Below are positions 27,723-46,890 of a DNA stretch of 64,000 nucleotides, piece by piece. Position numbers and translations under genes: made by a program. Position 1 is the stretch's first letter, and the number at the start of each line of letters is the position of its first letter. The notes below the pieces were generated by a model that did not search any database, was not told the origin of the DNA, and worked only from the letters and a program-made list of their open reading frames with translations. The stretch spans positions 362,266,001-362,330,000 of the forward strand of contig OZ024742.1 of NCBI GenBank assembly GCA_964016885.1, written 5' to 3'. The stretch is from Eledone cirrhosa (lineage: Eukaryota).

Positions 27723-29387
27723 CTACATTTTAAATTTATATTTATATTTAAAAGTTGAGTTCAATCTATGTCTGCAGCAACTGAATACATTTGTCCGTAA
27801 ATTAAGGGAATTTTTAGATTTTAGTATAAAGAATATCTCCTCCGCGCAGAGGTCACATGTCTCAGAGGATGAATTAAAAGGAATCCCTCTTGAGACTATA
27901 TTCCAAGCCGTTGAATATCCAACGTTATCATGCCTAAGTTGCCAGAGTAAGCCTGATAGTGATGTTGAGGATTTTTTGCTTGGATCTGTGAAAGAATTAT
28001 TGTGGTTATTATAGCGAAGTTTAAATTCTGTCGAGGTGGAACCAACATAGTTAAAAGAATTTAAGTCCGTTTTAACATTACAGTTGTATATTATATTTTT
28101 AACTAAGCAATTGTTATTTAACGGACATTTAGATCTATCTCTACAGTTACATTTGTTAACTTGGATATTATTTATGCTATTATCGGTATTTTGGCTAGGT
28201 TTTAAATTCCTATTATTTATTCTATTAATATTTTGTGCTAAATTTTTGGTGGATGAGTAGGTTAATTTTATAGTATGTCTATTGAAAATTGAGTGATACC
28301 TATGTGTTCTAGGGAAGCGATTATCAAGAGCATTAAAAAATAGTTTAGCGATGTGGGTTTTAATGTTTAGTGAGAAAGGGGGGGCAAACCATATTATATT
28401 CCTAGTTCTATTTCTTTTTTGGCTTTTGGAATTATTGTAATGCTTTCTATTATAGTTGTTAAAGTTGTTGCCGTAATTAAAATTGTTGTTATTTTGGTTA
28501 GTTTGTCTATTATTATCTATGTACATAATTTTATCACTATATCCTGCTCTAGCTAACGCTTCATTGTAATACTGGGCTTTTTCGTCGAAAATCTTTTTAT
28601 TAGATGAGATTCTAGAGATACGATTTTGAACAGAGTTTACTATAGTATTTTTAACAGATCTGGGGTGGTTAGAGTTAAAGCTGACATAGTTTAAGTTTTC
28701 ATTCAACTTGTGAAATGGATAGTGAAGACATGTGTTGAGATTTAATGTTACATCTAGGAAATTGACTATTCTATGGTTATTCTCAATTTCTATTTTTAGA
28801 TTAAAGTAATTAAAAAATTGTGTAATTTGTTTTCTTTTTCTATTTAGTTCAGAGTTATTATTTTCAATAAGTAAAAGCATGTCATCTCTATATAAACCTC
28901 CGGTAGCACCGGGTATTTTCCTATGCAGCGAATTGATTAAAAATAGGCCCACAAGGTCAGTTACCTGAGCTGAGTCGGATGATCCCATAGTAATGTCGAA
29001 ATTGTTATCTCTATCTGCTCTGGTCCATAGTTGGTCATTAAATTCTATGAATGTTTTCCTAGCCGATAATATAATGTGCATTTCATTGCTAGTTAGGTCT
29101 GTATGTTTGAATGCGTAATTTAGTGCCTTATTTAGTAGATTAGGGGTAATAGATGAATAATAGTTAGCGATATCTAGTTGAATAAACTTATTATTATTGT
29201 TATATTTAATTTCTTTAAACCACTCAACAACCTCTCCAGTTCCCTTCCACAAGCTCAAGTTAGGTACACAATTCAAGTTTTTAATTTGCTGTATCACCCT
29301 GTCTAGAATGTTTTTGCTTAGTTTACCCAGGTCCGATTTTGATGGTGCAATCAATCTGACTGGCAGGTCATTTTCAAAATTACTTTT
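27723..29387 (-). CDS. Penelope-like reverse transcriptase + GIY-YIG endonuclease, 5'-truncated, probably Nematis clade
   Basis: 543-aa open frame with RLIAPSKSDLG, FIQLDIANYYSSI, FDITMGSSDSAQ, GLYRDD, NFLDVTLNL, SNHP, IIWFAPPFS, CNCR..CPL, IIY..NYVGST, CDLCAEE; homology extends to about 29387 with no ATG start. Confidence 0.92.
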   Translation of the reverse strand, partial: KSNFENDLPVRLIAPSKSDLGKLSKNILDRVIQQIKNLNCVPNLSLWKGTGEVVEWFKEIKYNNNNKFIQLDIANYYSSITPNLLNKALNYAFKHTDLTSNEMHIILSARKTFIEFNDQLWTRADRDNNFDITMGSSDSAQVTDLVGLFLINSLHRKIPGATGGLYRDDMLLLIENNNSELNRKRKQITQFFNYFNLKIEIENNHRIVNFLDVTLNLNTCLHYPFHKLNENLNYVSFNSNHPRSVKNTIVNSVQNRISRISSNKKIFDEKAQYYNEALARAGYSDKIMYIDNNRQTNQNNNNFNYGNNFNNYNRKHYNNSKSQKRNRTRNIIWFAPPFSLNIKTHIAKLFFNALDNRFPRTHRYHSIFNRHTIKLTYSSTKNLAQNINRINNRNLKPSQNTDNSINNIQVNKCNCRDRSKCPLNNNCLVKNIIYNCNVKTDLNSFNYVGSTSTEFKLRYNNHNNSFTDPSKKSSTSLSGLLWQLRHDNVGYSTAWNIVSRGIPFNSSSETCDLCAEEIFFILKSKNSLNLRTNVFSCCRHRLNSTFKYKYKFKM

Positions 29388-29485
29388 TATTTAATATCGT
29401 AAATATACTCCAAATACTTGTTGAGTGCTTTTATATCAGTTATAAATATTTACTCGTTGTTAACCCAACAATTTAAATAAAACTT

Positions 29486-31722: not shown

Positions 31723-31775
31723 CTCTCTCTATATATATATATATACATATATATATGTATATTTATATATTTATA

Positions 31776-31860
<85 letters not shown>

Positions 31861-31871
<11 letters not shown>

Positions 31872-34800
31872 AATATAGACATAGAATATTCGAAAATATT
31901 CTGTATGTTTATAATAAACATTTTGAAGACCTAATCGCTATAGAATAGAATACGTCACGTATTACAATTAGATTCTCGATAAAAGCAAGGGAAGTAATCT
32001 ACGCGTTTCATTCTCGTTAGAAATCATCAGGACTACATATCCAGTGCTTTTATCGAGAATGACACAGCTAGAGACTTATAGAATACTTAGCTGTGTACAG
32101 GAACTGGTTTGAAAGAGCGGTTGCCGGTCCGGCAGAAATTAGAAATTGGAATAAATGCTCTGAAATAGCGATATATATGTGAATATAGACATAGAATATT
32201 CGAAAATATTCTGTATGTTTATAATAAACATTTTGAAGACCTAATCGCTATAGAATAGAATACGTCACGTATTACAATTAGATTCTCGATAAAAGCAAGG
32301 GAAGTAATCTACGCGTTTCATTCTCGTTAGAAATCATCAGGACTACATATCCAGTGCTTTTATCGAGAATGACACAGCTAGAGACTTATAGAATACTTAG
32401 CTGTGTACAGGAACTGGTTTGAAAGAGCGGTTGCCGGTCCGGCAGAAATTAGAAATTGGAATAAATGCTCTGAAATAGCGATATATATGTGAATATAGAC
32501 ATAGAATATTCGAAAATATTCTGTATGTTTATAATAAACATTTTGAAGACCTAATCGCTATAGAATAGAATACGTCACGTATTACAATTAGATTCTCGAT
32601 AAAAGCAAGGGAAGTAATCTACGCGTTTCATTCTCGTTAGAAATCATCAGGACTACATATCCAGTGCTTTTATCGAGAATGACACAGCTAGAGACTTATA
32701 GAATACTTAGCTGTGTACAGGAACTGGTTTGAAAGAGCGGTTGCCGGTCCGGCAGAAATTAGAAATTGGAATAAATGCTCTGAAATAGCGATATATATGT
32801 GAATATAGACATAGAATATTCGAAAATATTCTGTATGTTTATAATAAACATTTTGAAGACCTAATCGCTATAGAATAGAATACGTCACGTATTACAATTA
32901 GATTCTCGATAAAAGCAAGGGAAGTAATCTACGCGTTTCATTCTCGTTAGAAATCATCAGGACTACATATCCAGTGCTTTTATCGAGAATGACACAGCTA
33001 GAGACTTATAGAATACTTAGCTGTGTACAGGAACTGGTTTGAAAGAGCGGTTGCCGGTCCGGCAGAAATTAGAAATTGGAATAAATGCTCTGAAATAGCG
33101 ATATATATGTGAATATAGACATAGAATATTCGAAAATATTCTGTATGTTTATAATAAACATTTTGAAGACCTAATCGCTATAGAATAGAATTCTATAGCG
33201 TATTCTATTCTATAGCGATTAGGTCTTCAAAATGTTTATTATAAACATACAGAATATTTTCGAATATTCTATGTCTATATTCACATATATATCGCTATTT
33301 CAGAGCATTTATTCCAATTTCTAATTTCTGCCGGACCGGCAACCGCTCTTTCAAACCAGTTCCTGTACACAGCTAAGTATTCTATAAGTCTCTAGCTGTG
33401 TCATTCTCGATAAAAGCACTGGATATGTAGTCCTGATGATTTCTAACGAGAATGAAACGCGTAGATTACTTCCCTTGCTTTTATCGAGAATCTAATTGTA
33501 ATACGTGACGTATTCTATTCTATAGCGATTAGGTCTTCAAAATGTTTATTATAAACATACAGAATATTTTCGAATATTCTATGTCTATATTCACATATAT
33601 ATCGCTATTTCAGAGCATTTATTCCAATTTCTAATTTCTGCCGGACCGGCAACCGCTCTTTCAAACCAGTTCCTGTACACAGCTAAGTATTCTATAAGTC
33701 TCTAGCTGTGTCATTCTCGATAAAAGCACTGGATATGTAGTCCTGATGATTTCTAACGAGAATGAAACGCGTAGATTACTTCCCTTGCTTTTATCGAGAA
33801 TCTAATTGTAATACGTGACGTATTCTATTCTATAGCGATTAGGTCTTCAAAATGTTTATTATAAACATACAGAATATTTTCGAATATTCTATGTCTATAT
33901 TCACATATATATCGCTATTTCAGAGCATTTATTCCAATTTCTAATTTCTGCCGGACCGGCAACCGCTCTTTCAAACCAGTTCCTGTACACAGCTAAGTAT
34001 TCTATAAGTCTCTAGCTGTGTCATTCTCGATAAAAGCACTGGATATGTAGTCCTGATGATTTCTAACGAGAATGAAACGCGTAGATTACTTCCCTTGCTT
34101 TTATCGAGAATCTAATTGTAATACGTGACGTATTCTATTCTATAGCGATTAGGTCTTCAAAATGTTTATTATAAACATACAGAATATTTTCGAATATTCT
34201 ATGTCTATATTCACATATATATCGCTATTTCAGAGCATTTATTCCAATTTCTAATTTCTGCCGGACCGGCAACCGCTCTTTCAAACCAGTTCCTGTACAC
34301 AGCTAAGTATTCTATAAGTCTCTAGCTGTGTCATTCTCGATAAAAGCACTGGATATGTAGTCCTGATGATTTCTAACGAGAATGAAACGCGTAGATTACT
34401 TCCCTTGCTTTTATCGAGAATCTAATTGTAATACGTGACGTATTCTATTCTATAGCGATTAGGTCTTCAAAATGTTTATTATAAACATACAGAATATTTT
34501 CGAATATTCTATGTCTATATTCACATATATATCGCTATTTCAGAGCATTTATTCCAATTTCTAATTTCTGCCGGACCGGCAACCGCTCTTTCAAACCAGT
34601 TCCTGTACACAGCTAAGTATTCTATAAGTCTCTAGCTGTGTCATTCTCGATAAAAGCACTGGATATGTAGTCCTGATGATTTCTAACGAGAATGAAACGC
34701 GTAGATTACTTCCCTTGCTTTTATCGAGAATCTAATTGTAATACGTGACGTATTCTATTCTATAGCGATTAGGTCTTCAAAATGTTTATTATAAACATAC

Positions 34801-37800
34801 AGAATATTTTCGAATATTCTATGTCTATATTCACATATATATCGCTATTTCAGAGCATTTATTCCAATTTCTAATTTCTGCCGGACCGGCAACCGCTCTT
34901 TCAAACCAGTTCCTGTACACAGCTAAGTATTCTATAAGTCTCTAGCTGTGTCATTCTCGATAAAAGCACTGGATATGTAGTCCTGATGATTTCTAACGAG
35001 AATGAAACGCGTAGATTACTTCCCTTGCTTTTATCGAGAATCTAATTGTAATACGTGACGTATTCTATTCTATAGCGATTAGGTCTTCAAAATGTTTATT
35101 ATAAACATACAGAATATTTTCGAATATTCTATGTCTATATTCACATATATATCGCTATTTCAGAGCATTTATTCCAATTTCTAATTTCTGCCGGACCGGC
35201 AACCGCTCTTTCAAACCAGTTCCTGTACACAGCTAAGTATTCTATAAGTCTCTAGCTGTGTCATTCTCGATAAAAGCACTGGATATGTAGTCCTGATGAT
35301 TTCTAACGAGAATGAAACGCGTAGATTACTTCCCTTGCTTTTATCGAGAATCTAATTGTAATACGTGACGTATTCTATTCTATAGCGATTAGGTCTTCAA
35401 AATGTTTATTATAAACATAGAGAATATTTTCGAATATTCTATGTCTATATTCACATATATATCGCTATTTCAGAGCATTTATTCCAATTTCTAATTTCTG
35501 CCGGACCGGCAACCGCTCTTTCAAACCAGTTCCTGTACACAGCTAAGTATTCTATAAGTCTCTAGCTGTGTCATTCTCGATAAAAGCACTGGATATGTAG
35601 TCCTGATGATTTCTAACGAGAATGAAACGCGTAGATTACTTCCCTTGCTTTTATCGAGAATCTAATTGTAATACGTGACGTATTCTATTCTATAGCGATT
35701 AGGTCTTCAAAATGTTTATTATAAACATACAGAATATTTTCGAATATTCTATGTCTATATTCACATATATATCGCTATTTCAGAGCATTTATTCCAATTT
35801 CTAATTTCTGCCGGACCGGCAACCGCTCTTTCAAACCAGTTCCTGTACACAGCTAAGTATTCTATAAGTCTCTAGCTGTGTCATTCTCGATAAAAGCACT
35901 GGATATGTAGTCCTGATGATTTCTAACGAGAATGAAACGCGTAGATTACTTCCCTTGCTTTTATCGAGAATCTAATTGTAATACGTGACGTATTCTATTC
36001 TATAGCGATTAGGTCTTCAAAATGTTTATTATAAACATACAGAATATTTTCGAATATTCTATGTCTATATTCACATATATATCGCTATTTCAGAGCATTT
36101 ATTCCAATTTCTAATTTCTGCCGGACCGGCAACCGCTCTTTCAAACCAGTTCCTGTACACAGCTAAGTATTCTATAAGTCTCTAGCTGTGTCATTCTCGA
36201 TAAAAGCACTGGATATGTAGTCCTGATGATTTCTAACGAGAATGAAACGCGTAGATTACTTCCCTTGCTTTTATCGAGAATCTAATTGTAATACGTGACG
36301 TATTCTATTCTATAGCGATTAGGTCTTCAAAATGTTTATTATAAACATACAGAATATTTTCGAATATTCTATGTCTATATTCACATATATATCGCTATTT
36401 CAGAGCATTTATTCCAATTTCTAATTTCTGCCGGACCGGCAACCGCTCTTTCAAACCAGTTCCTGTACACAGCTAAGTATTCTATAAGTCTCTAGCTGTG
36501 TCATTCTCGATAAAAGCACTGGATATGTAGTCCTGATGATTTCTAACGAGAATGAAACGCGTAGATTACTTCCCTTGCTTTTATCGAGAATCTAATTGTA
36601 ATACGTGACGTATTCTATTCTATAGCGATTAGGTCTTCAAAATGTTTATTATAAACATACAGAATATTTTCGAATATTCTATGTCTATATTCACATATAT
36701 ATCGCTATTTCAGAGCATTTATTCCAATTTCTAATTTCTGCCGGACCGGCAACCGCTCTTTCAAACCAGTTCCTGTACACAGCTAAGTATTCTATAAGTC
36801 TCTAGCTGTGTCATTCTCGATAAAAGCACTGGATATGTAGTCCTGATGATTTCTAACGAGAATGAAACGCGTAGATTACTTCCCTTGCTTTTATCGAGAA
36901 TCTAATTGTAATACGTGACGTATTCTATTCTATAGCGATTAGGTCTTCAAAATGTTTATTATAAACATACAGAATATTTTCGAATATTCTATGTCTATAT
37001 TCACATATATATCGCTATTTCAGAGCATTTATTCCAATTTCTAATTTCTGCCGGACCGGCAACCGCTCTTTCAAACCAGTTCCTGTACACAGCTAAGTAT
37101 TCTATAAGTCTCTAGCTGTGTCATTCTCGATAAAAGCACTGGATATGTAGTCCTGATGATTTCTAACGAGAATGAAACGCGTAGATTACTTCCCTTGCTT
37201 TTATCGAGAATCTAATTGTAATACGTGACGTATTCTATTCTATAGCGATTAGGTCTTCAAAATGTTTATTATAAACATACAGAATATTTTCGAATATTCT
37301 ATGTCTATATTCACATATATATCGCTATTTCAGAGCATTTATTCCAATTTCTAATTTCTGCCGGACCGGCAACCGCTCTTTCAAACCAGTTCCTGTACAC
37401 AGCTAAGTATTCTATAAGTCTCTAGCTGTGTCATTCTCGATAAAAGCACTGGATATGTAGTCCTGATGATTTCTAACGAGAATGAAACGCGTAGATTACT
37501 TCCCTTGCTTTTATCGAGAATCTAATTGTAATACGTGACGTATTCTATTCTATAGCGATTAGGTCTTCAAAATGTTTATTATAAACATACAGAATATTTT
37601 CGAATATTCTATGTCTATATTCACATATATATCGCTATTTCAGAGCATTTATTCCAATTTCTAATTTCTGCCGGACCGGCAACCGCTCTTTCAAACCAGT
37701 TCCTGTACACAGCTAAGTATTCTATAAGTCTCTAGCTGTGTCATTCTCGATAAAAGCACTGGATATGTAGTCCTGATGATTTCTAACGAGAATGAAACGC

Positions 37801-40800
37801 GTAGATTACTTCCCTTGCTTTTATCGAGAATCTAATTGTAATACGTGACGTATTCTATTCTATAGCGATTAGGTCTTCAAAATGTTTATTATAAACATAC
37901 AGAATATTTTCGAATATTCTATGTCTATATTCACATATATATCGCTATTTCAGAGCATTTATTCCAATTTCTAATTTCTGCCGGACCGGCAACCGCTCTT
38001 TCAAACCAGTTCCTGTACACAGCTAAGTATTCTATAAGTCTCTAGCTGTGTCATTCTCGATAAAAGCACTGGATATGTAGTCCTGATGATTTCTAACGAG
38101 AATGAAACGCGTAGATTACTTCCCTTGCTTTTATCGAGAATCTAATTGTAATACGTGACGTATTCTATTCTATAGCGATTAGGTCTTCAAAATGTTTATT
38201 ATAAACATACAGAATATTTTCGAATATTCTATGTCTATATTCACATATATATCGCTATTTCAGAGCATTTATTCCAATTTCTAATTTCTGCCGGACCGGC
38301 AACCGCTCTTTCAAACCAGTTCCTGTACACAGCTAAGTATTCTATAAGTCTCTAGCTGTGTCATTCTCGATAAAAGCACTGGATATGTAGTCCTGATGAT
38401 TTCTAACGAGAATGAAACGCGTAGATTACTTCCCTTGCTTTTATCGAGAATCTAATTGTAATACGTGACGTATTCTATTCTATAGCGATTAGGTCTTCAA
38501 AATGTTTATTATAAACATACAGAATATTTTCGAATATTCTATGTCTATATTCACATATATATCGCTATTTCAGAGCATTTATTCCAATTTCTAATTTCTG
38601 CCGGACCGGCAACCGCTCTTTCAAACCAGTTCCTGTACACAGCTAAGTATTCTATAAGTCTCTAGCTGTGTCATTCTCGATAAAAGCACTGGATATGTAG
38701 TCCTGATGATTTCTAACGAGAATGAAACGCGTAGATTACTTCCCTTGCTTTTATCGAGAATCTAATTGTAATACGTGACGTATTCTATTCTATAGCGATT
38801 AGGTCTTCAAAATGTTTATTATAAACATACAGAATATTTTCGAATATTCTATGTCTATATTCACATATATATCGCTATTTCAGAGCATTTATTCCAATTT
38901 CTAATTTCTGCCGGACCGGCAACCGCTCTTTCAAACCAGTTCCTGTACACAGCTAAGTATTCTATAAGTCTCTAGCTGTGTCATTCTCGATAAAAGCACT
39001 GGATATGTAGTCCTGATGATTTCTAACGAGAATGAAACGCGTAGATTACTTCCCTTGCTTTTATCGAGAATCTAATTGTAATACGTGACGTATTCTATTC
39101 TATAGCGATTAGGTCTTCAAAATGTTTATTATAAACATACAGAATATTTTCGAATATTCTATGTCTATATTCACATATATATCGCTATTTCAGAGCATTT
39201 ATTCCAATTTCTAATTTCTGCCGGACCGGCAACCGCTCTTTCAAACCAGTTCCTGTACACAGCTAAGTATTCTATAAGTCTCTAGCTGTGTCATTCTCGA
39301 TAAAAGCACTGGATATGTAGTCCTGATGATTTCTAACGAGAATGAAACGCGTAGATTACTTCCCTTGCTTTTATCGAGAATCTAATTGTAATACGTGACG
39401 TATTCTATTCTATAGCGATTAGGTCTTCAAAATGTTTATTATAAACATACAGAATATTTTCGAATATTCTATGTCTATATTCACATATATATCGCTATTT
39501 CAGAGCATTTATTCCAATTTCTAATTTCTGCCGGACCGGCAACCGCTCTTTCAAACCAGTTCCTGTACACAGCTAAGTATTCTATAAGTCTCTAGCTGTG
39601 TCATTCTCGATAAAAGCACTGGATATGTAGTCCTGATGATTTCTAACGAGAATGAAACGCGTAGATTACTTCCCTTGCTTTTATCGAGAATCTAATTGTA
39701 ATACGTGACGTATTCTATTCTATAGCGATTAGGTCTTCAAAATGTTTATTATAAACATACAGAATATTTTCGAATATTCTATGTCTATATTCACATATAT
39801 ATCGCTATTTCAGAGCATTTATTCCAATTTCTAATTTCTGCCGGACCGGCAACCGCTCTTTCAAACCAGTTCCTGTACACAGCTAAGTATTCTATAAGTC
39901 TCTAGCTGTGTCATTCTCGATAAAAGCACTGGATATGTAGTCCTGATGATTTCTAACGAGAATGAAACGCGTAGATTACTTCCCTTGCTTTTATCGAGAA
40001 TCTAATTGTAATACGTGACGTATTCTATTCTATAGCGATTAGGTCTTCAAAATGTTTATTATAAACATACAGAATATTTTCGAATATTCTATGTCTATAT
40101 TCACATATATATCGCTATTTCAGAGCATTTATTCCAATTTCTAATTTCTGCCGGACCGGCAACCGCTCTTTCAAACCAGTTCCTGTACACAGCTAAGTAT
40201 TCTATAAGTCTCTAGCTGTGTCATTCTCGATAAAAGCACTGGATATGTAGTCCTGATGATTTCTAACGAGAATGAAACGCGTAGATTACTTCCCTTGCTT
40301 TTATCGAGAATCTAATTGTAATACGTGACGTATTCTATTCTATAGCGATTAGGTCTTCAAAATGTTTATTATAAACATACAGAATATTTTCGAATATTCT
40401 ATGTCTATATTCACATATATATCGCTATTTCAGAGCATTTATTCCAATTTCTAATTTCTGCCGGACCGGCAACCGCTCTTTCAAACCAGTTCCTGTACAC
40501 AGCTAAGTATTCTATAAGTCTCTAGCTGTGTCATTCTCGATAAAAGCACTGGATATGTAGTCCTGATGATTTCTAACGAGAATGAAACGCGTAGATTACT
40601 TCCCTTGCTTTTATCGAGAATCTAATTGTAATACGTGACGTATTCTATTCTATAGCGATTAGGTCTTCAAAATGTTTATTATAAACATACAGAATATTTT
40701 CGAATATTCTATGTCTATATTCACATATATATCGCTATTTCAGAGCATTTATTCCAATTTCTAATTTCTGCCGGACCGGCAACCGCTCTTTCAAACCAGT

Positions 40801-43800
40801 TCCTGTACACAGCTAAGTATTCTATAAGTCTCTAGCTGTGTCATTCTCGATAAAAGCACTGGATATGTAGTCCTGATGATTTCTAACGAGAATGAAACGC
40901 GTAGATTACTTCCCTTGCTTTTATCGAGAATCTAATTGTAATACGTGACGTATTCTATTCTATAGCGATTAGGTCTTCAAAATGTTTATTATAAACATAC
41001 AGAATATTTTCGAATATTCTATGTCTATATTCACATATATATCGCTATTTCAGAGCATTTATTCCAATTTCTAATTTCTGCCGGACCGGCAACCGCTCTT
41101 TCAAACCAGTTCCTGTACACAGCTAAGTATTCTATAAGTCTCTAGCTGTGTCATTCTCGATAAAAGCACTGGATATGTAGTCCTGATGATTTCTAACGAG
41201 AATGAAACGCGTAGATTACTTCCCTTGCTTTTATCGAGAATCTAATTGTAATACGTGACGTATTCTATTCTATAGCGATTAGGTCTTCAAAATGTTTATT
41301 ATAAACATACAGAATATTTTCGAATATTCTATGTCTATATTCACATATATATCGCTATTTCAGAGCATTTATTCCAATTTCTAATTTCTGCCGGACCGGC
41401 AACCGCTCTTTCAAACCAGTTCCTGTACACAGCTAAGTATTCCATAAGTCTCTAGCTGTGTCATTCTCGATAAAAGCACTGGATATGTAGTCCTGATGAT
41501 TTCTAACGAGAATGAAACGCGTAGATTACTTCCCTTGCTTTTATCGAGAATCTAATTGTAATACGTGACGTATTCTATTCTATAGCGATTAGGTCTTCAA
41601 AATGTTTATTATAAACATACAGAATATTTTCGAATATTCTATGTCTATATTCACATATATATCGCTATTTCAGAGCATTTATTCCAATTTCTAATTTCTG
41701 CCGGACCGGCAACCGCTCTTTCAAACCAGTTCCTGTACACAGCTAAGTATTCTATAAGTCTCTAGCTGTGTCATTCTCGATAAAAGCACTGGATATGTAG
41801 TCCTGATGATTTCTAACGAGAATGAAACGCGTAGATTACTTCCCTTGCTTTTATCGAGAATCTAATTGTAATACGTGACGTATTCTATTCTATAGCGATT
41901 AGGTCTTCAAAATGTTTATTATAAACATACAGAATATTTTCGAATATTCTATGTCTATATTCACATATATATCGCTATTTCAGAGCATTTATTCCAATTT
42001 CTAATTTCTGCCGGACCGGCAACCGCTCTTTCAAACCAGTTCCTGTACACAGCTAAGTATTCTATAAGTCTCTAGCTGTGTCATTCTCGATAAAAGCACT
42101 GGATATGTAGTCCTGATGATTTCTAACGAGAATGAAACGCGTAGATTACTTCCCTTGCTTTTATCGAGAATCTAATTGTAATACGTGACGTATTCTATTC
42201 TATAGCGATTAGGTCTTCAAAATGTTTATTATAAACATACAGAATATTTTCGAATATTCTATGTCTATATTCACATATATATCGCTATTTCAGAGCATTT
42301 ATTCCAATTTCTAATTTCTGCCGGACCGGCAACCGCTCTTTCAAACCAGTTCCTGTACACAGCTAAGTATTCTATAAGTCTCTAGCTGTGTCATTCTCGA
42401 TAAAAGCACTGGATATGTAGTCCTGATGATTTCTAACGAGAATGAAACGCGTAGATTACTTCCCTTGCTTTTATCGAGAATCTAATTGTAATACGTGACG
42501 TATTCTATTCTATAGCGATTAGGTCTTCAAAATGTTTATTATAAACATACAGAATATTTTCGAATATTCTATGTCTATATTCACATATATATCGCTATTT
42601 CAGAGCATTTATTCCAATTTCTAATTTCTGCCGGACCGGCAACCGCTCTTTCAAACCAGTTCCTGTACACAGCTAAGTATTCTATAAGTCTCTAGCTGTG
42701 TCATTCTCGATAAAAGCACTGGATATGTAGTCCTGATGATTTCTAACGAGAATGAAACGCGTAGATTACTTCCCTTGCTTTTATCGAGAATCTAATTGTA
42801 ATACGTGACGTATTCTATTCTATAGCGATTAGGTCTTCAAAATGTTTATTATAAACATACAGAATATTTTCGAATATTCTATGTCTATATTCACATATAT
42901 ATCGCTATTTCAGAGCATTTATTCCAATTTCTAATTTCTGCCGGACCGGCAACCGCTCTTTCAAACCAGTTCCTGTACACAGCTAAGTATTCTATAAGTC
43001 TCTAGCTGTGTCATTCTCGATAAAAGCACTGGATATGTAGTCCTGATGATTTCTAACGAGAATGAAACGCGTAGATTACTTCCCTTGCTTTTATCGAGAA
43101 TCTAATTGTAATACGTGACGTATTCTATTCTATAGCGATTAGGTCTTCAAAATGTTTATTATAAACATACAGAATATTTTCGAATATTCTATGTCTATAT
43201 TCACATATATATCGCTATTTCAGAGCATTTATTCCAATTTCTAATTTCTGCCGGACCGGCAACCGCTCTTTCAAACCAGTTCCTGTACACAGCTAAGTAT
43301 TCTATAAGTCTCTAGCTGTGTCATTCTCGATAAAAGCACTGGATATGTAGTCCTGATGATTTCTAACGAGAATGAAACGCGTAGATTACTTCCCTTGCTT
43401 TTATCGAGAATCTAATTGTAATACGTGACGTATTCTATTCTATAGCAATTAGGTCTTCAAAATGTTTATTATAAACATACAGAATATTTTCGAATATTCT
43501 ATGTCTATATTCACATATATATCGCTATTTCAGAGCATTTATTCCAATTTCTAATTTCTGCCGGACCGGCAACCGCTCTTTCAAACCAGTTCCTGTACAC
43601 AGCTAAGTATTCTATAAGTCTCTAGCTGTGTCATTCTCGATAAAAGCACTGGATATGTAGTCCTGATGATTTCTAACGAGAATGAAACGCGTAGATTACT
43701 TCCCTTGCTTTTATCGAGAATCTAATTGTAATACGTGACGTATTCTATTCTATAGCGATTAGGTCTTCAAAATGTTTATTATAAACATACAGAATATTTT

Positions 43801-44793
43801 CGAATATTCTATGTCTATATTCACATATATATCGCTATTTCAGAGCATTTATTCCAATTTCTAATTTCTGCCGGACCGGCAACCGCTCTTTCAAACCAGT
43901 TCCTGTACACAGCTAAGTATTCTATAAGTCTCTAGCTGTGTCATTCTCGATAAAAGCACTGGATATGTAGTCCTGATGATTTCTAACGAGAATGAAACGC
44001 GTAGATTACTTCCCTTGCTTTTATCGAGAATCTAATTGTAATACGTGACGTATTCTATTCTATAGCGATTAGGTCTTCAAAATGTTTATTATAAACATAC
44101 AGAATATTTTCGAATATTCTATGTCTATATTCACATATATATCGCTATTTCAGAGCATTTATTCCAATTTCTAATTTCTGCCGGACCGGCAACCGCTCTT
44201 TCAAACCAGTTCCTGTACACAGCTAAGTATTCTATAAGTCTCTAGCTGTGTCATTCTCTATAAAAGCACTGGATATGTAGTCCTGATGATTTCTAACGAG
44301 AATGAAACGCGTAGATTACTTCCCTTGCTTTTATCGAGAATCTAATTGTAATACGTGACGTATTCTATTCTATAGCGATTAGGTCTTCAAAATGTTTATT
44401 ATAAACATACAGAATATTTTCGAATATTCTATGACTATATTCACATATATATCGCTATTTCAGAGCATTTATTCCAATTTCTAATTTCTGCCGGACCGGC
44501 AACCGCTCTTTCAAACCAGTTCCTGTACACAGCTAAGTATTCTATAAGTCTCTAGCTGTGTCATTCTCGATAAAAGCACTGGATATGTAGTCCTGATGAT
44601 TTCTAACGAGAATGAAACGCGTAGATTACTTCCCTTGCTTTTATCGAGAATCTAATTGTAATACGTGACGTATTCTATTCTATAGCGATTAGGTCTTCAA
44701 AATGTTTATTATAAACATACAGAATATTTTCGAATATTCTATGTCTATATTCACATATATATCGCTATTTCAGAGCATTTATTCCAATTTCTA
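31861..44793. repeat. 310-bp tandem array (about 41.6 units) of a hammerhead-bearing unit; candidate non-LTR retrozyme
   Basis: Exact 310-bp period; minus-oriented block 31861-33190 (about 4.3 units), plus-oriented block 33199-44793 (about 37.4 units); (TA)n on both sides; no ORF. Confidence 0.95.
33403..33491 (+). ncRNA. Type I hammerhead ribozyme (first of 37 plus-strand copies; 4 more on the minus strand)
   Basis: Stem I gtagtc/gattac, CTGATGA 33433-33439, stem II ttct-aacg-agaa, GAAA 33454-33457, palindromic stem III ACGCGT, GUA cleavage after 33463; 16-bp outer stem attctcgataaaagca/tgcttttatcgagaat. Confidence 0.88.
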
Positions 44794-44808
44794 TATATAT
44801 ATATATAT

Positions 44809-44952
<144 letters not shown>

Positions 44953-45037: not shown

Positions 45038-46890
45038 ATGGCTATCACCTTGCTTGAGTTAAAAAAATATAACCTCCAGCAATGCATGATGACCATCATC
45101 AATAACCAGAGAATAGCTGAAGAGAGCTGGGCCATTGAGAAAATCAAACTCAACCCCAAAGTGTTCTTTTCATTTGCTAAAAAACACAAGGTCAGCGTCT
45201 CCACTGTTGGCCCCGTAGTTGATGACAATGGCACACTCCAAGACAATGCCAAAACCATGGGCGAGATACTGCAGAAACAATACTGCTCTGTTTTCAGCAA
45301 TCCTGATATGGCCGATCTGGGCCGTACCAGTGATGTTAATTTCTCCACACACTATATCAGACATAACGTTTGGCGCCCCTGATGCCTTAGCGGCAATAAA
45401 AGAAATTAAACACAATTCAGCAGTAGGCCCCGATGGGTTCCCTGCTTGTGTCCTGAAGGTGTGTCGACACCAACTTGCATCTCCTCTGGTTAATCTGTGG
45501 AGGAACTCACTGGACTCTGGCTATATTCCTGAAAACTTTCTGTCCCAGTCCATTGTCCCAGTCTTCAAAAAGGGAAATAAGTCCCTTGCAGTGAACTACC
45601 ATCCGATCTCACTCACCTCTCATATTATCAAGGTATTTGAGAGGGTGATGAGATCACGAATAACTCACTTTCTTGAAAGCAACGGTCTGCTGAACTCCAA
45701 CCAACATGGGTTCCGTAATGGAAGGGACTGCGTAACGCAGCTCCTGCATCACTTTGACGATGTTTTGAGAGCCTTGGGAGAGGGCTCCAACACTGATGTC
45801 ATCTACCTTGATTTCAGCAAGGCCTTCGACAGGGTTGATCATGAGATTCTACTGAAAAAACTATCCAATGTTGGTGTCTCTGGAAGGTTACTACAGTGGA
45901 TCAAATGTTTCCTGACACGCAGAACCCAGCATGTTGTAGTTGAAGGAGTAAAATCAAGCCCTGCCAAAGTCAGCAGTGGCGTCCCACATGGTACTGTGTT
46001 GGGCCCACTTCTTTTCATCATCTACATTAATGACATTACTGACATCATCAAGCACAGCAACATCAGAATCTTCGCAGACGATTCCAAGCTCCAAAGGGTC
46101 ATCAATGAAGTGGGTGACCGGACTTGCCCTCAGTCAGACCTACTGGCTGTTATCCAATGGGCAGAAATGAATAATATGCTGTTGAATTAATCCACTTTGG
46201 AAAAATTTGAATTAATCCACTTTGGAAAAAAGGATGCCCTGAAACTACCATACTCTCTTCTTTCAGGTGAAACTCTAGTGGCATCCAATAACATCAGAGA
46301 CCCGAGAGTAATTGTGGACAACGACATAAGCTGGGCCACTCATATAAACAGCAAAGTTGATATGGCCCGCAGAATGTGTCCCTGGATTCTTAGAACTTTC
46401 CAGTCGAGAGATATCCACACTGTTATCCTTCTCTTCTCCACTTTTGCCCGACCCCACCTTGGATACTGTTGTCCACTGTGGTCACTCCACACGAAACAAA
46501 GTATTATGAAAGTTGAAGCACCCCAAAGTTCAATTACAAAAAAGATAGATGGCATGACAGGCCTTGACTATCGTAGTCGATTAGAAAAGCTGAAACTTTA
46601 TTCTCTCCACCGTCGCTGTGAGCGCTACATTATCTGTATGGTGTGGAAAATATTCCATCAGCTTTGCCCAAATGATGTTGGCATCACCTTTAGTGTACAC
46701 CCAAGGCTTGGGCCCCGTGCTATCCGCCACAACAAAAATCCCACTCGCATCACATAACAACAATACGGCACAATTATTTCACCTCAATTGGCCCTGCACT
46801 CTTTAACATTACACCAAGACACGTCAAAGCAGAGACAGACCCCATCACGTTCAAGAAGTCTTTGGATAAATTCCTTCAAGAAATCCCGGT
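45038..46890 (+). pseudogene. CR1-clade LINE ORF2 (RT) remnant
   Basis: NYHPISLTS, NQHGFR, YLDFSKAFDRVDH, SGVPHGTVLGP, IFADDSKL, RLEKLKLYSL, FKKSLDKFL; frameshifts and a 25-bp duplication at 46183-46230. Confidence 0.9.

Follow-up and report, generated by a model that had tools for sequence, protein, structure and literature searches.

A hammerhead-bearing 310-bp repeat inserted as two head-to-head arrays in Eledone cirrhosa: family-wide data favour priming from both target ends over fold-back self-priming

The window analyzed here is a 64,000-nt stretch of the Eledone cirrhosa genome (assembly GCA_964016885.1, contig OZ024742.1, positions 362,266,001 to 362,330,000 of the forward strand), and it contains an insertion in which an antisense arm (1,331 bp) and a sense arm (11,595 bp) of a 310-bp repeat lie head-to-head across a 7-nt insert, between two (TA)n tracts. 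The features needed for the argument are listed below in window coordinates.

31730..31868, no strand: (TA)n target, left side, the last 8 nt of which overlap the unit's own AT run (from sequence)
31861..33191, minus strand: inverted arm of 4.3 identical 310-bp units, running from start site A (unit position 94) on the outside to unit position 4 on the inside
33176..33186, minus strand: candidate template of the insert if made by snap-back (inverted 11-nt sequence match)
33190..33191, plus strand: 2-nt microhomology AT between left arm end and insert (sequence match)
33192..33198, plus strand: net 7-nt templated insert, the inversion centre (from arm parsing)
33199..33200, plus strand: 2-nt microhomology CG between insert and right arm start (sequence match)
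33199..44793, plus strand: sense arm of 37.4 units with five single-unit substitutions, with its inner end at unit position 1 and its outer end at 125 (start site B)
33207..33217, plus strand: 11-nt direct match, the candidate template in the case of a 17-nt back-slip and the one that the sister loci favour
33427..33469, plus strand: first minimal type I hammerhead motif of the sense arm (read from the sequence; predicted cut after 33463)
33500..33514, plus strand: built-in 7-bp inverted repeat of the unit (unit positions 302-6), a recurrent centre at other loci
44794..44809, no strand: right-hand target tract, (TA)8, with (TC)n directly after it

The hammerhead motif occupies unit positions 229-271 and has, as read by eye, a 6-bp stem I, an intact core and a palindromic stem III, with 41 full copies in the window (37 on the plus and 4 on the minus strand). 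Its stem II base pair is U-U, not the usual G-C, and an Rfam scan returned no hammerhead match; the only matches, to miRNA and sRNA families, were hairpin-driven and below their cut-offs, and were rejected. Variants fixed at individual loci map to the free core position, loop II and the stems, sparing the conserved core, and a minimal hammerhead with a palindromic stem III is described in PMC4209133 as a dimer-dependent form found in Penelope-like elements (PLEs). There is no open reading frame in the unit, the longest stop-free stretch of the circularised unit being 59 aa. Because it combines a tandem unit of ~300 bp, a type I hammerhead motif in every unit, the lack of an open reading frame and a dispersed high copy number, the repeat fits, by its sequence features, an animal non-LTR retrozyme, a class for which the same characteristics are described (PMC7229834; bioRxiv 10.64898/2026.07.22.740005) and which is proposed in those sources to use PLE enzymes. 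We regard the element as a further member of this established class; its two-armed layout has precedents in PLEs. At L137:2440-2871 lies an inverted repeat that also bears a hammerhead and is related to the unit, with 78% identity over positions 14-109. Sequencing runs carrying 18 different organism labels contain words of the unit, at great depth in one sample and at low depth in a second one.

The insertion also has the anatomy of a PLE, as supported by its inverted arm, its tail (31 nt at this locus), its (TA)n target and its minimal hammerhead. An inverted 5'-truncated arm, a tail, a (TA)n bias and two internal start sites are likewise described for endonuclease-bearing PLEs (PMC3846280, PMC8557442, PMC11167929), from which the present element differs in having no open reading frame and in that both arms are multimers of one small unit, such that arm length and centre position can be measured separately. 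Compared with the retrozymes of the two sources cited above, the difference is that nearly all loci seen here pair two arrays head-to-head, the outer ends being fixed; the main text of PMC7229834 does not use the word "inverted", and the available text of bioRxiv 10.64898/2026.07.22.740005 describes no such layout.

A pattern search of the genome gave 4,085 exact motif matches, and three centre-spanning patterns matched 352, 729 and 789 times, the first two being head-to-head centres with two anchors; scaling from 79 centres in the first 186 Mb of contig C1, we estimate 1,150-1,300 two-armed loci. Among the first 100 motif matches, 10 of 11 loci carried a head-to-head inverted copy, the other (L048) being single-armed, and the family is very young. 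For the family set, 167 stretches were taken and 166 centre rows parsed, the window included; both outer ends were read in 125 of these rows, the other 41 being cut at the edge of the fetched stretch, and arm lengths were compared in the 82 complete loci of the first set. A mis-parsed duplicate (the first copy of L084) and L048 were dropped, while L206, L210, L245 and L248 lay outside the automatic parse, L210 being read by eye. A genome-wide search near the unit position of the window locus returned 61 centres, with 45 parsed among the 50 matches listed.

The outer ends of these insertions follow a simple rule, in that one arm ends near unit position 94 (A) and the other at about 120-127 (B) in 121 of the 125 rows, the four exceptions being one assembly gap and three diverged copies. 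The A end falls at position 94 in 71 of 86 cases, and the B end within 120-127 in 84 of 87. The interval between A and B (26-33 nt across the family) is the 30-40-bp tail that PLEs are reported to carry at one end (PMC8557442). (TA)n flanks both sides in 74 of 82 loci, and target duplications of 11-15 bp can be read in four loci where the target is not pure TA (L047, L074, L078 and L123), the duplication at the window locus not being readable. At A, the TA run of the target overlaps the AT run of the unit and has overwritten a mismatch at position 86 in 40 of the 71 ends at 94, which suggests annealing at this site; at B, target and unit share 1-2 nt.

Both arms of a locus come from one template, as 170 fixed substitutions are common to both arms and none is confined to one arm (163 rows). 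Thirteen locus-private variants, in 10 loci, occupy nearly all units of both arms, a distribution that, as far as sequence can tell, would be best explained by a monomer circle or by a monomer stage at some point in the past. Such a circle fails to account for the three loci (L090, L063 and the second insertion of L058) in which a single-unit variant is common to both arms, against 0.05 expected, and these hint that some insertions involved multimeric templates or conversion; in L090 the variant sits at the same RNA position and at the same distance from both outer ends. The long arms of L113 and L241 carry linked variants that recur at uneven unit intervals, which is probably the result of later local duplication within the array.

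At the junction itself (33171..33220), bases 33191-33200 are the exact reverse complement of 33176-33185, as the original prediction had stated, and the match is one base longer than described there, extending over 11 nt (33190-33200 against 33176-33186) with a 3-nt loop. In direct orientation, these 11 nt match 33207-33217 of the right arm just as exactly and over the same boundaries, a repeat that the original prediction does not mention. The left arm follows the antisense strand of the unit without a mismatch as far as 33191 and the right arm starts at 33199 with the shared CG, and the arm alignment thus confirms the earlier claim that sequence resumes in the plus unit through this 2-nt microhomology. 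The probability of an 11-nt match arising by chance within 160 nearby positions is ~1e-4, from which the 7-nt insert is templated, again as had been proposed. The direction of copying is a different matter, as the inverted and direct matches are tied here because the two arms end at nearly equal unit positions, and the junction can neither decide between them nor prove a snap-back; taken alone, it is an ordinary, undecidable example. Mirrored RT errors, sought as a local test, were not found, none of the five single-unit changes falling within the inner 4.3 units.

The sister centres, in turn, are informative on how such junctions are made. On contig C1, 100 of 125 centres are free of inserts, and 58 of these 100 show microhomology of at least 2 nt, compared to 18.2 expected (p = 1e-18). 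We examined 28 apparent inserts in addition to that of L210, and assigned nine as templated in direct orientation only, four as degenerate, three as short and ambiguous (L070, L099, L102), five as in-register arm sequence with one change (L074, L077, L083, L092, L256), and the remaining seven as without a clear template or from diverged subfamilies. With L210 included, the direct-only inserts number ten (L046, L049, L110, L122, L131, L065, L196, L210, the first insertion of L058 and the second insertion of L239), against zero that can be explained by snap-back only (sign test p = 0.002); the four ties, including the window junction, all lie at centres no more than 13 nt from symmetry. In the terms of PMC2943611, the informative inserts are products of loop-out and not of snap-back. 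Insertions of at least 4 nt inside the arms were found only twice in 302 kb, and direct duplications are thus clustered at the centres. The most extended case is at L210:1170-1400 (G000:C1, ~272.98 Mb), where ~11 direct re-copies of a 9-11-nt motif precede the centre and are followed by in-register continuation; this requires template beyond the 3' end and therefore points to slippage on RNA, and the stutter resembles repeat addition by a slipping RT. At L075, L196 and the second insertion of L239, the inversion centre itself has been duplicated by a direct back-jump across the centre.

In a rival reading, the inverted arm was made by fold-back: a single cDNA would turn back and use itself as template before the opposite end of the target captures it, which is how the original prediction took the inverted 5' segment of PLE insertions to form. 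This predicts centres that are symmetric apart from a short loop, and one arm type that is always the shorter. The window locus on its own looks much like this, with its inverted match and 3-nt loop, a centre that is only 3 nt from symmetry, and an A arm that is the shorter of the two, the outcome expected if the long arm had folded back and a point against a two-ended model. The family does not: centre offsets of 10 nt or less occur in 8 of 125 rows compared to 8.5 expected, and in 6 of the unbiased 79 centres compared to 5.4 expected, with offsets uniformly distributed (KS p = 0.20), and the longer arm is A in 41 and B in 41 of the 82 complete loci. As a self-copied arm cannot exceed its template, yet either arm is longer equally often, fold-back is not favoured, and centre symmetry and arm lengths fit it poorly as the family-wide origin of the inverted arm. 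Even where centres are symmetric and arms long, either arm can be the longer, and the perfect palindromes without a spacer at three centres (L229-L231) would be hard to obtain from a hairpin loop. The five exact centres (of 45), plus one with a mismatch, that fall on the unit's built-in inverted repeat speak for fold-back, but the five do not exceed the ~16% expected from microhomology length (a rough weight from three observations), and this hairpin was rejected as a self-priming hot spot. The predicted ribozyme cut at unit position 265 was likewise rejected as a stop site, the inner ends being spread over the unit (chi-square p = 0.12). The comparison with other centre junctions in the genome, which the original prediction had named as a check, gave the ten direct and zero snap-back inserts described above. 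Fold-back is thus largely refuted as a family-wide route, and we consider it improbable for the window insertion. What survives of the earlier link to PLEs is the anatomy (arm, tail, (TA)n target and hammerhead), and not snap-back as the way to the inverted segment. Several results weigh against two-ended priming. The single-armed L048 and the three loci whose arms share a single-unit variant are among them. The lengths of the two arms show a weak correlation (Spearman 0.32, p = 0.004). In 11 of 81 loci the inner ends fall on the same lap no more than 80 nt apart, where permutation gives 4.1 (p = 0.002), and in 5 loci the distance is at most 30 nt, with 1.6 expected (p = 0.02). Near unit position 1, 22 of the 45 parsed centres are no more than 8 nt from symmetry compared to ~17 expected. 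Together with the near-symmetric centres in two coding PLE copies (discussed below), these results allow for a minority fold-back class or for coupled termination of two RT sites.

A narrower use of snap-back is somewhat less improbable, although still unlikely: two-ended priming would have made the arms, and the left cDNA end would have snapped back briefly while the ends were being joined, leaving the 7-nt insert. Such a parse is sequence-equivalent at the window junction, and snap-back templated inserts are a described product of end joining (PMC2943611). The primer would, however, be a 2-bp hairpin with a computed free energy of +2.0 kcal/mol, a value that is not decisive alone, since weak primers of this kind may be protein-stabilised (PMC2943611), and no snap-back-only insert was found beside the ten informative sister inserts. 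With the direct parse tied, the primer this short and the sister inserts uniformly direct, the claim that this junction records snap-back self-priming is unsupported. We give still less weight to the insert being a later repair scar, left when a perfect palindrome with the built-in hairpin at its centre suffered a break at the tip and the break was closed by a templated patch. The window centre does resemble the recurrent hairpin centre in all but a stretch of 6 nt, which is exchanged for 7 nt, but the same kinds of insert are found at asymmetric centres that are unable to extrude a cruciform, and palindromes centred on the hairpin or lacking any spacer have stayed unrepaired despite arms of 1.4-3.5 kb (L224, L227, L230). 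Least probable of all is a fold-back artefact of the reads or the assembly. Contigs from 4 of 24 sequencing runs include none that crosses the inversion join, and a 35-nt piece from them extends to 33196 but could have come from another locus; the artefact is nevertheless unlikely because the arms are unequal, the outer ends differ as they do in the family, the sequences flanking the insertion do not mirror each other, and the same construction recurs with many different junctions.

The reading we prefer, to which we assign a probability of roughly 0.7, is that both 3' ends of the cut (TA)n target served as primers for reverse transcription of one RNA at two fixed sites and that the resulting cDNA ends were joined by microhomology. 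The 7-nt insert would then probably have arisen when the cDNA slipped back by 17 nt and copied the template again in direct orientation. From the anatomy, the A and B end rule, the shared variants, the microhomology excess and the direct insert orientation, all of which are read from the genome, we infer the following priming steps. A borrowed Penelope-type RT/GIY-YIG protein would make a staggered cut (cf. the 11-15-bp duplications), after which one target end would prime at unit position ~120-127 with 1-2 nt of pairing, while the TA run of the other would anneal at ~85-94. Each cDNA would then extend over several units, differing in number, along an RNA template that is either circular or multimeric. 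At the window locus, the long cDNA may have halted at position 1 and slipped from one CG to the CG 17 nt behind, with 9 nt re-copied before AT pairing with the other cDNA; a short cDNA priming in trans on the long one would give the same sequence. Second strands would finally be filled in. A broader version can only be put forward tentatively, at somewhat less than even odds: a dimeric PLE protein might hold one small RNA on which two fixed sites, ~30 nt apart, serve as starting points for extending both ends of the target, rolling through as many as 37 laps, with an RT that stutters in a telomerase-like manner (9-17-nt re-copying) at termination before the cDNAs are joined. Inverted arm and tail would then be one signature, replacing self-priming for PLE inversions generally.

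Such a scheme has relatives among known systems. Purified PLE protein is reported to cut and extend both target strands, with two internal start sites bounding the tail and a dimer predicted; the start sites were used without strand difference, which counts against the present reading, and the available text of this in vitro work does not address inversions (PMC11167929). Self-priming was proposed for PLEs from palindromes at inverted junctions (PMC3846280), and how PLEs make tandem-plus-inverted insertions is described as unresolved in PMC8557442; the present family data favour two-ended priming over the self-priming of PMC3846280. In LINE-1 twin priming (PMC11702581), as proposed here, both target 3' ends prime on one RNA, with target duplication and junction microhomology. 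There, however, the second primer is internal and the cDNAs end close together, nearly without overlap, whereas here the starts are fixed ~30 nt apart, the same sequence is copied repeatedly and the stops fall at unrelated unit positions. The inserts are similar to those of synthesis-dependent microhomology-mediated end joining (SD-MMEJ, PMC2943611), in which a primer repeat, short templated synthesis and a microhomology repeat are described and loop-out gives direct repeats, with the difference that the template here may be the RNA itself, as L210 continues ahead after its stutter. Full-text literature searches, judged by titles and the starts of abstracts, returned no application of twin priming to PLE or retrozyme inversions; subscription papers and supplements may differ. 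More than 1,000 estimated junctions on a periodic template, in a very young family, allow fold-back and two-ended predictions to be separated, linking the in vitro two-start-site result (PMC11167929) to an inverted genomic structure and making an open question of PLE transposition testable.

Intact RT and GIY-YIG frames are present in the genome. A partner of the 310-bp unit was sought among 50 GIY-YIG loci, yielding only 74-82% matches to neighbouring non-coding repeats and no partner pLTR. A young PLE family (L166, L167, L171, L174, L175, L178, L184), ~97% identical and inserted in (TA)n, has a 938-aa open frame with RT and GIY-YIG and two alternative 3' ends ~67 nt apart, and two coding RT and GIY-YIG copies (L171, L175) show the same two-end layout as the 310-bp family. 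Coding PLE copies at L181:3260-6525 and L171:1849-7097 are head-to-head with near-symmetric centres and spacers of 8 and 26 nt, respectively, the arms of L181 being of equal length; these two loci are candidates for true fold-back or coupled termination. Elsewhere in the window, open frames of 555 aa (27726-29390, minus strand) and 323 + 188 aa (45219-46754, plus strand) resemble retroelement fragments. Three short palindromic elements (7321-7590, 2672-2943 and 4367-4561), two of them with hammerhead-like core motifs, are possibly short two-armed insertions of other families.
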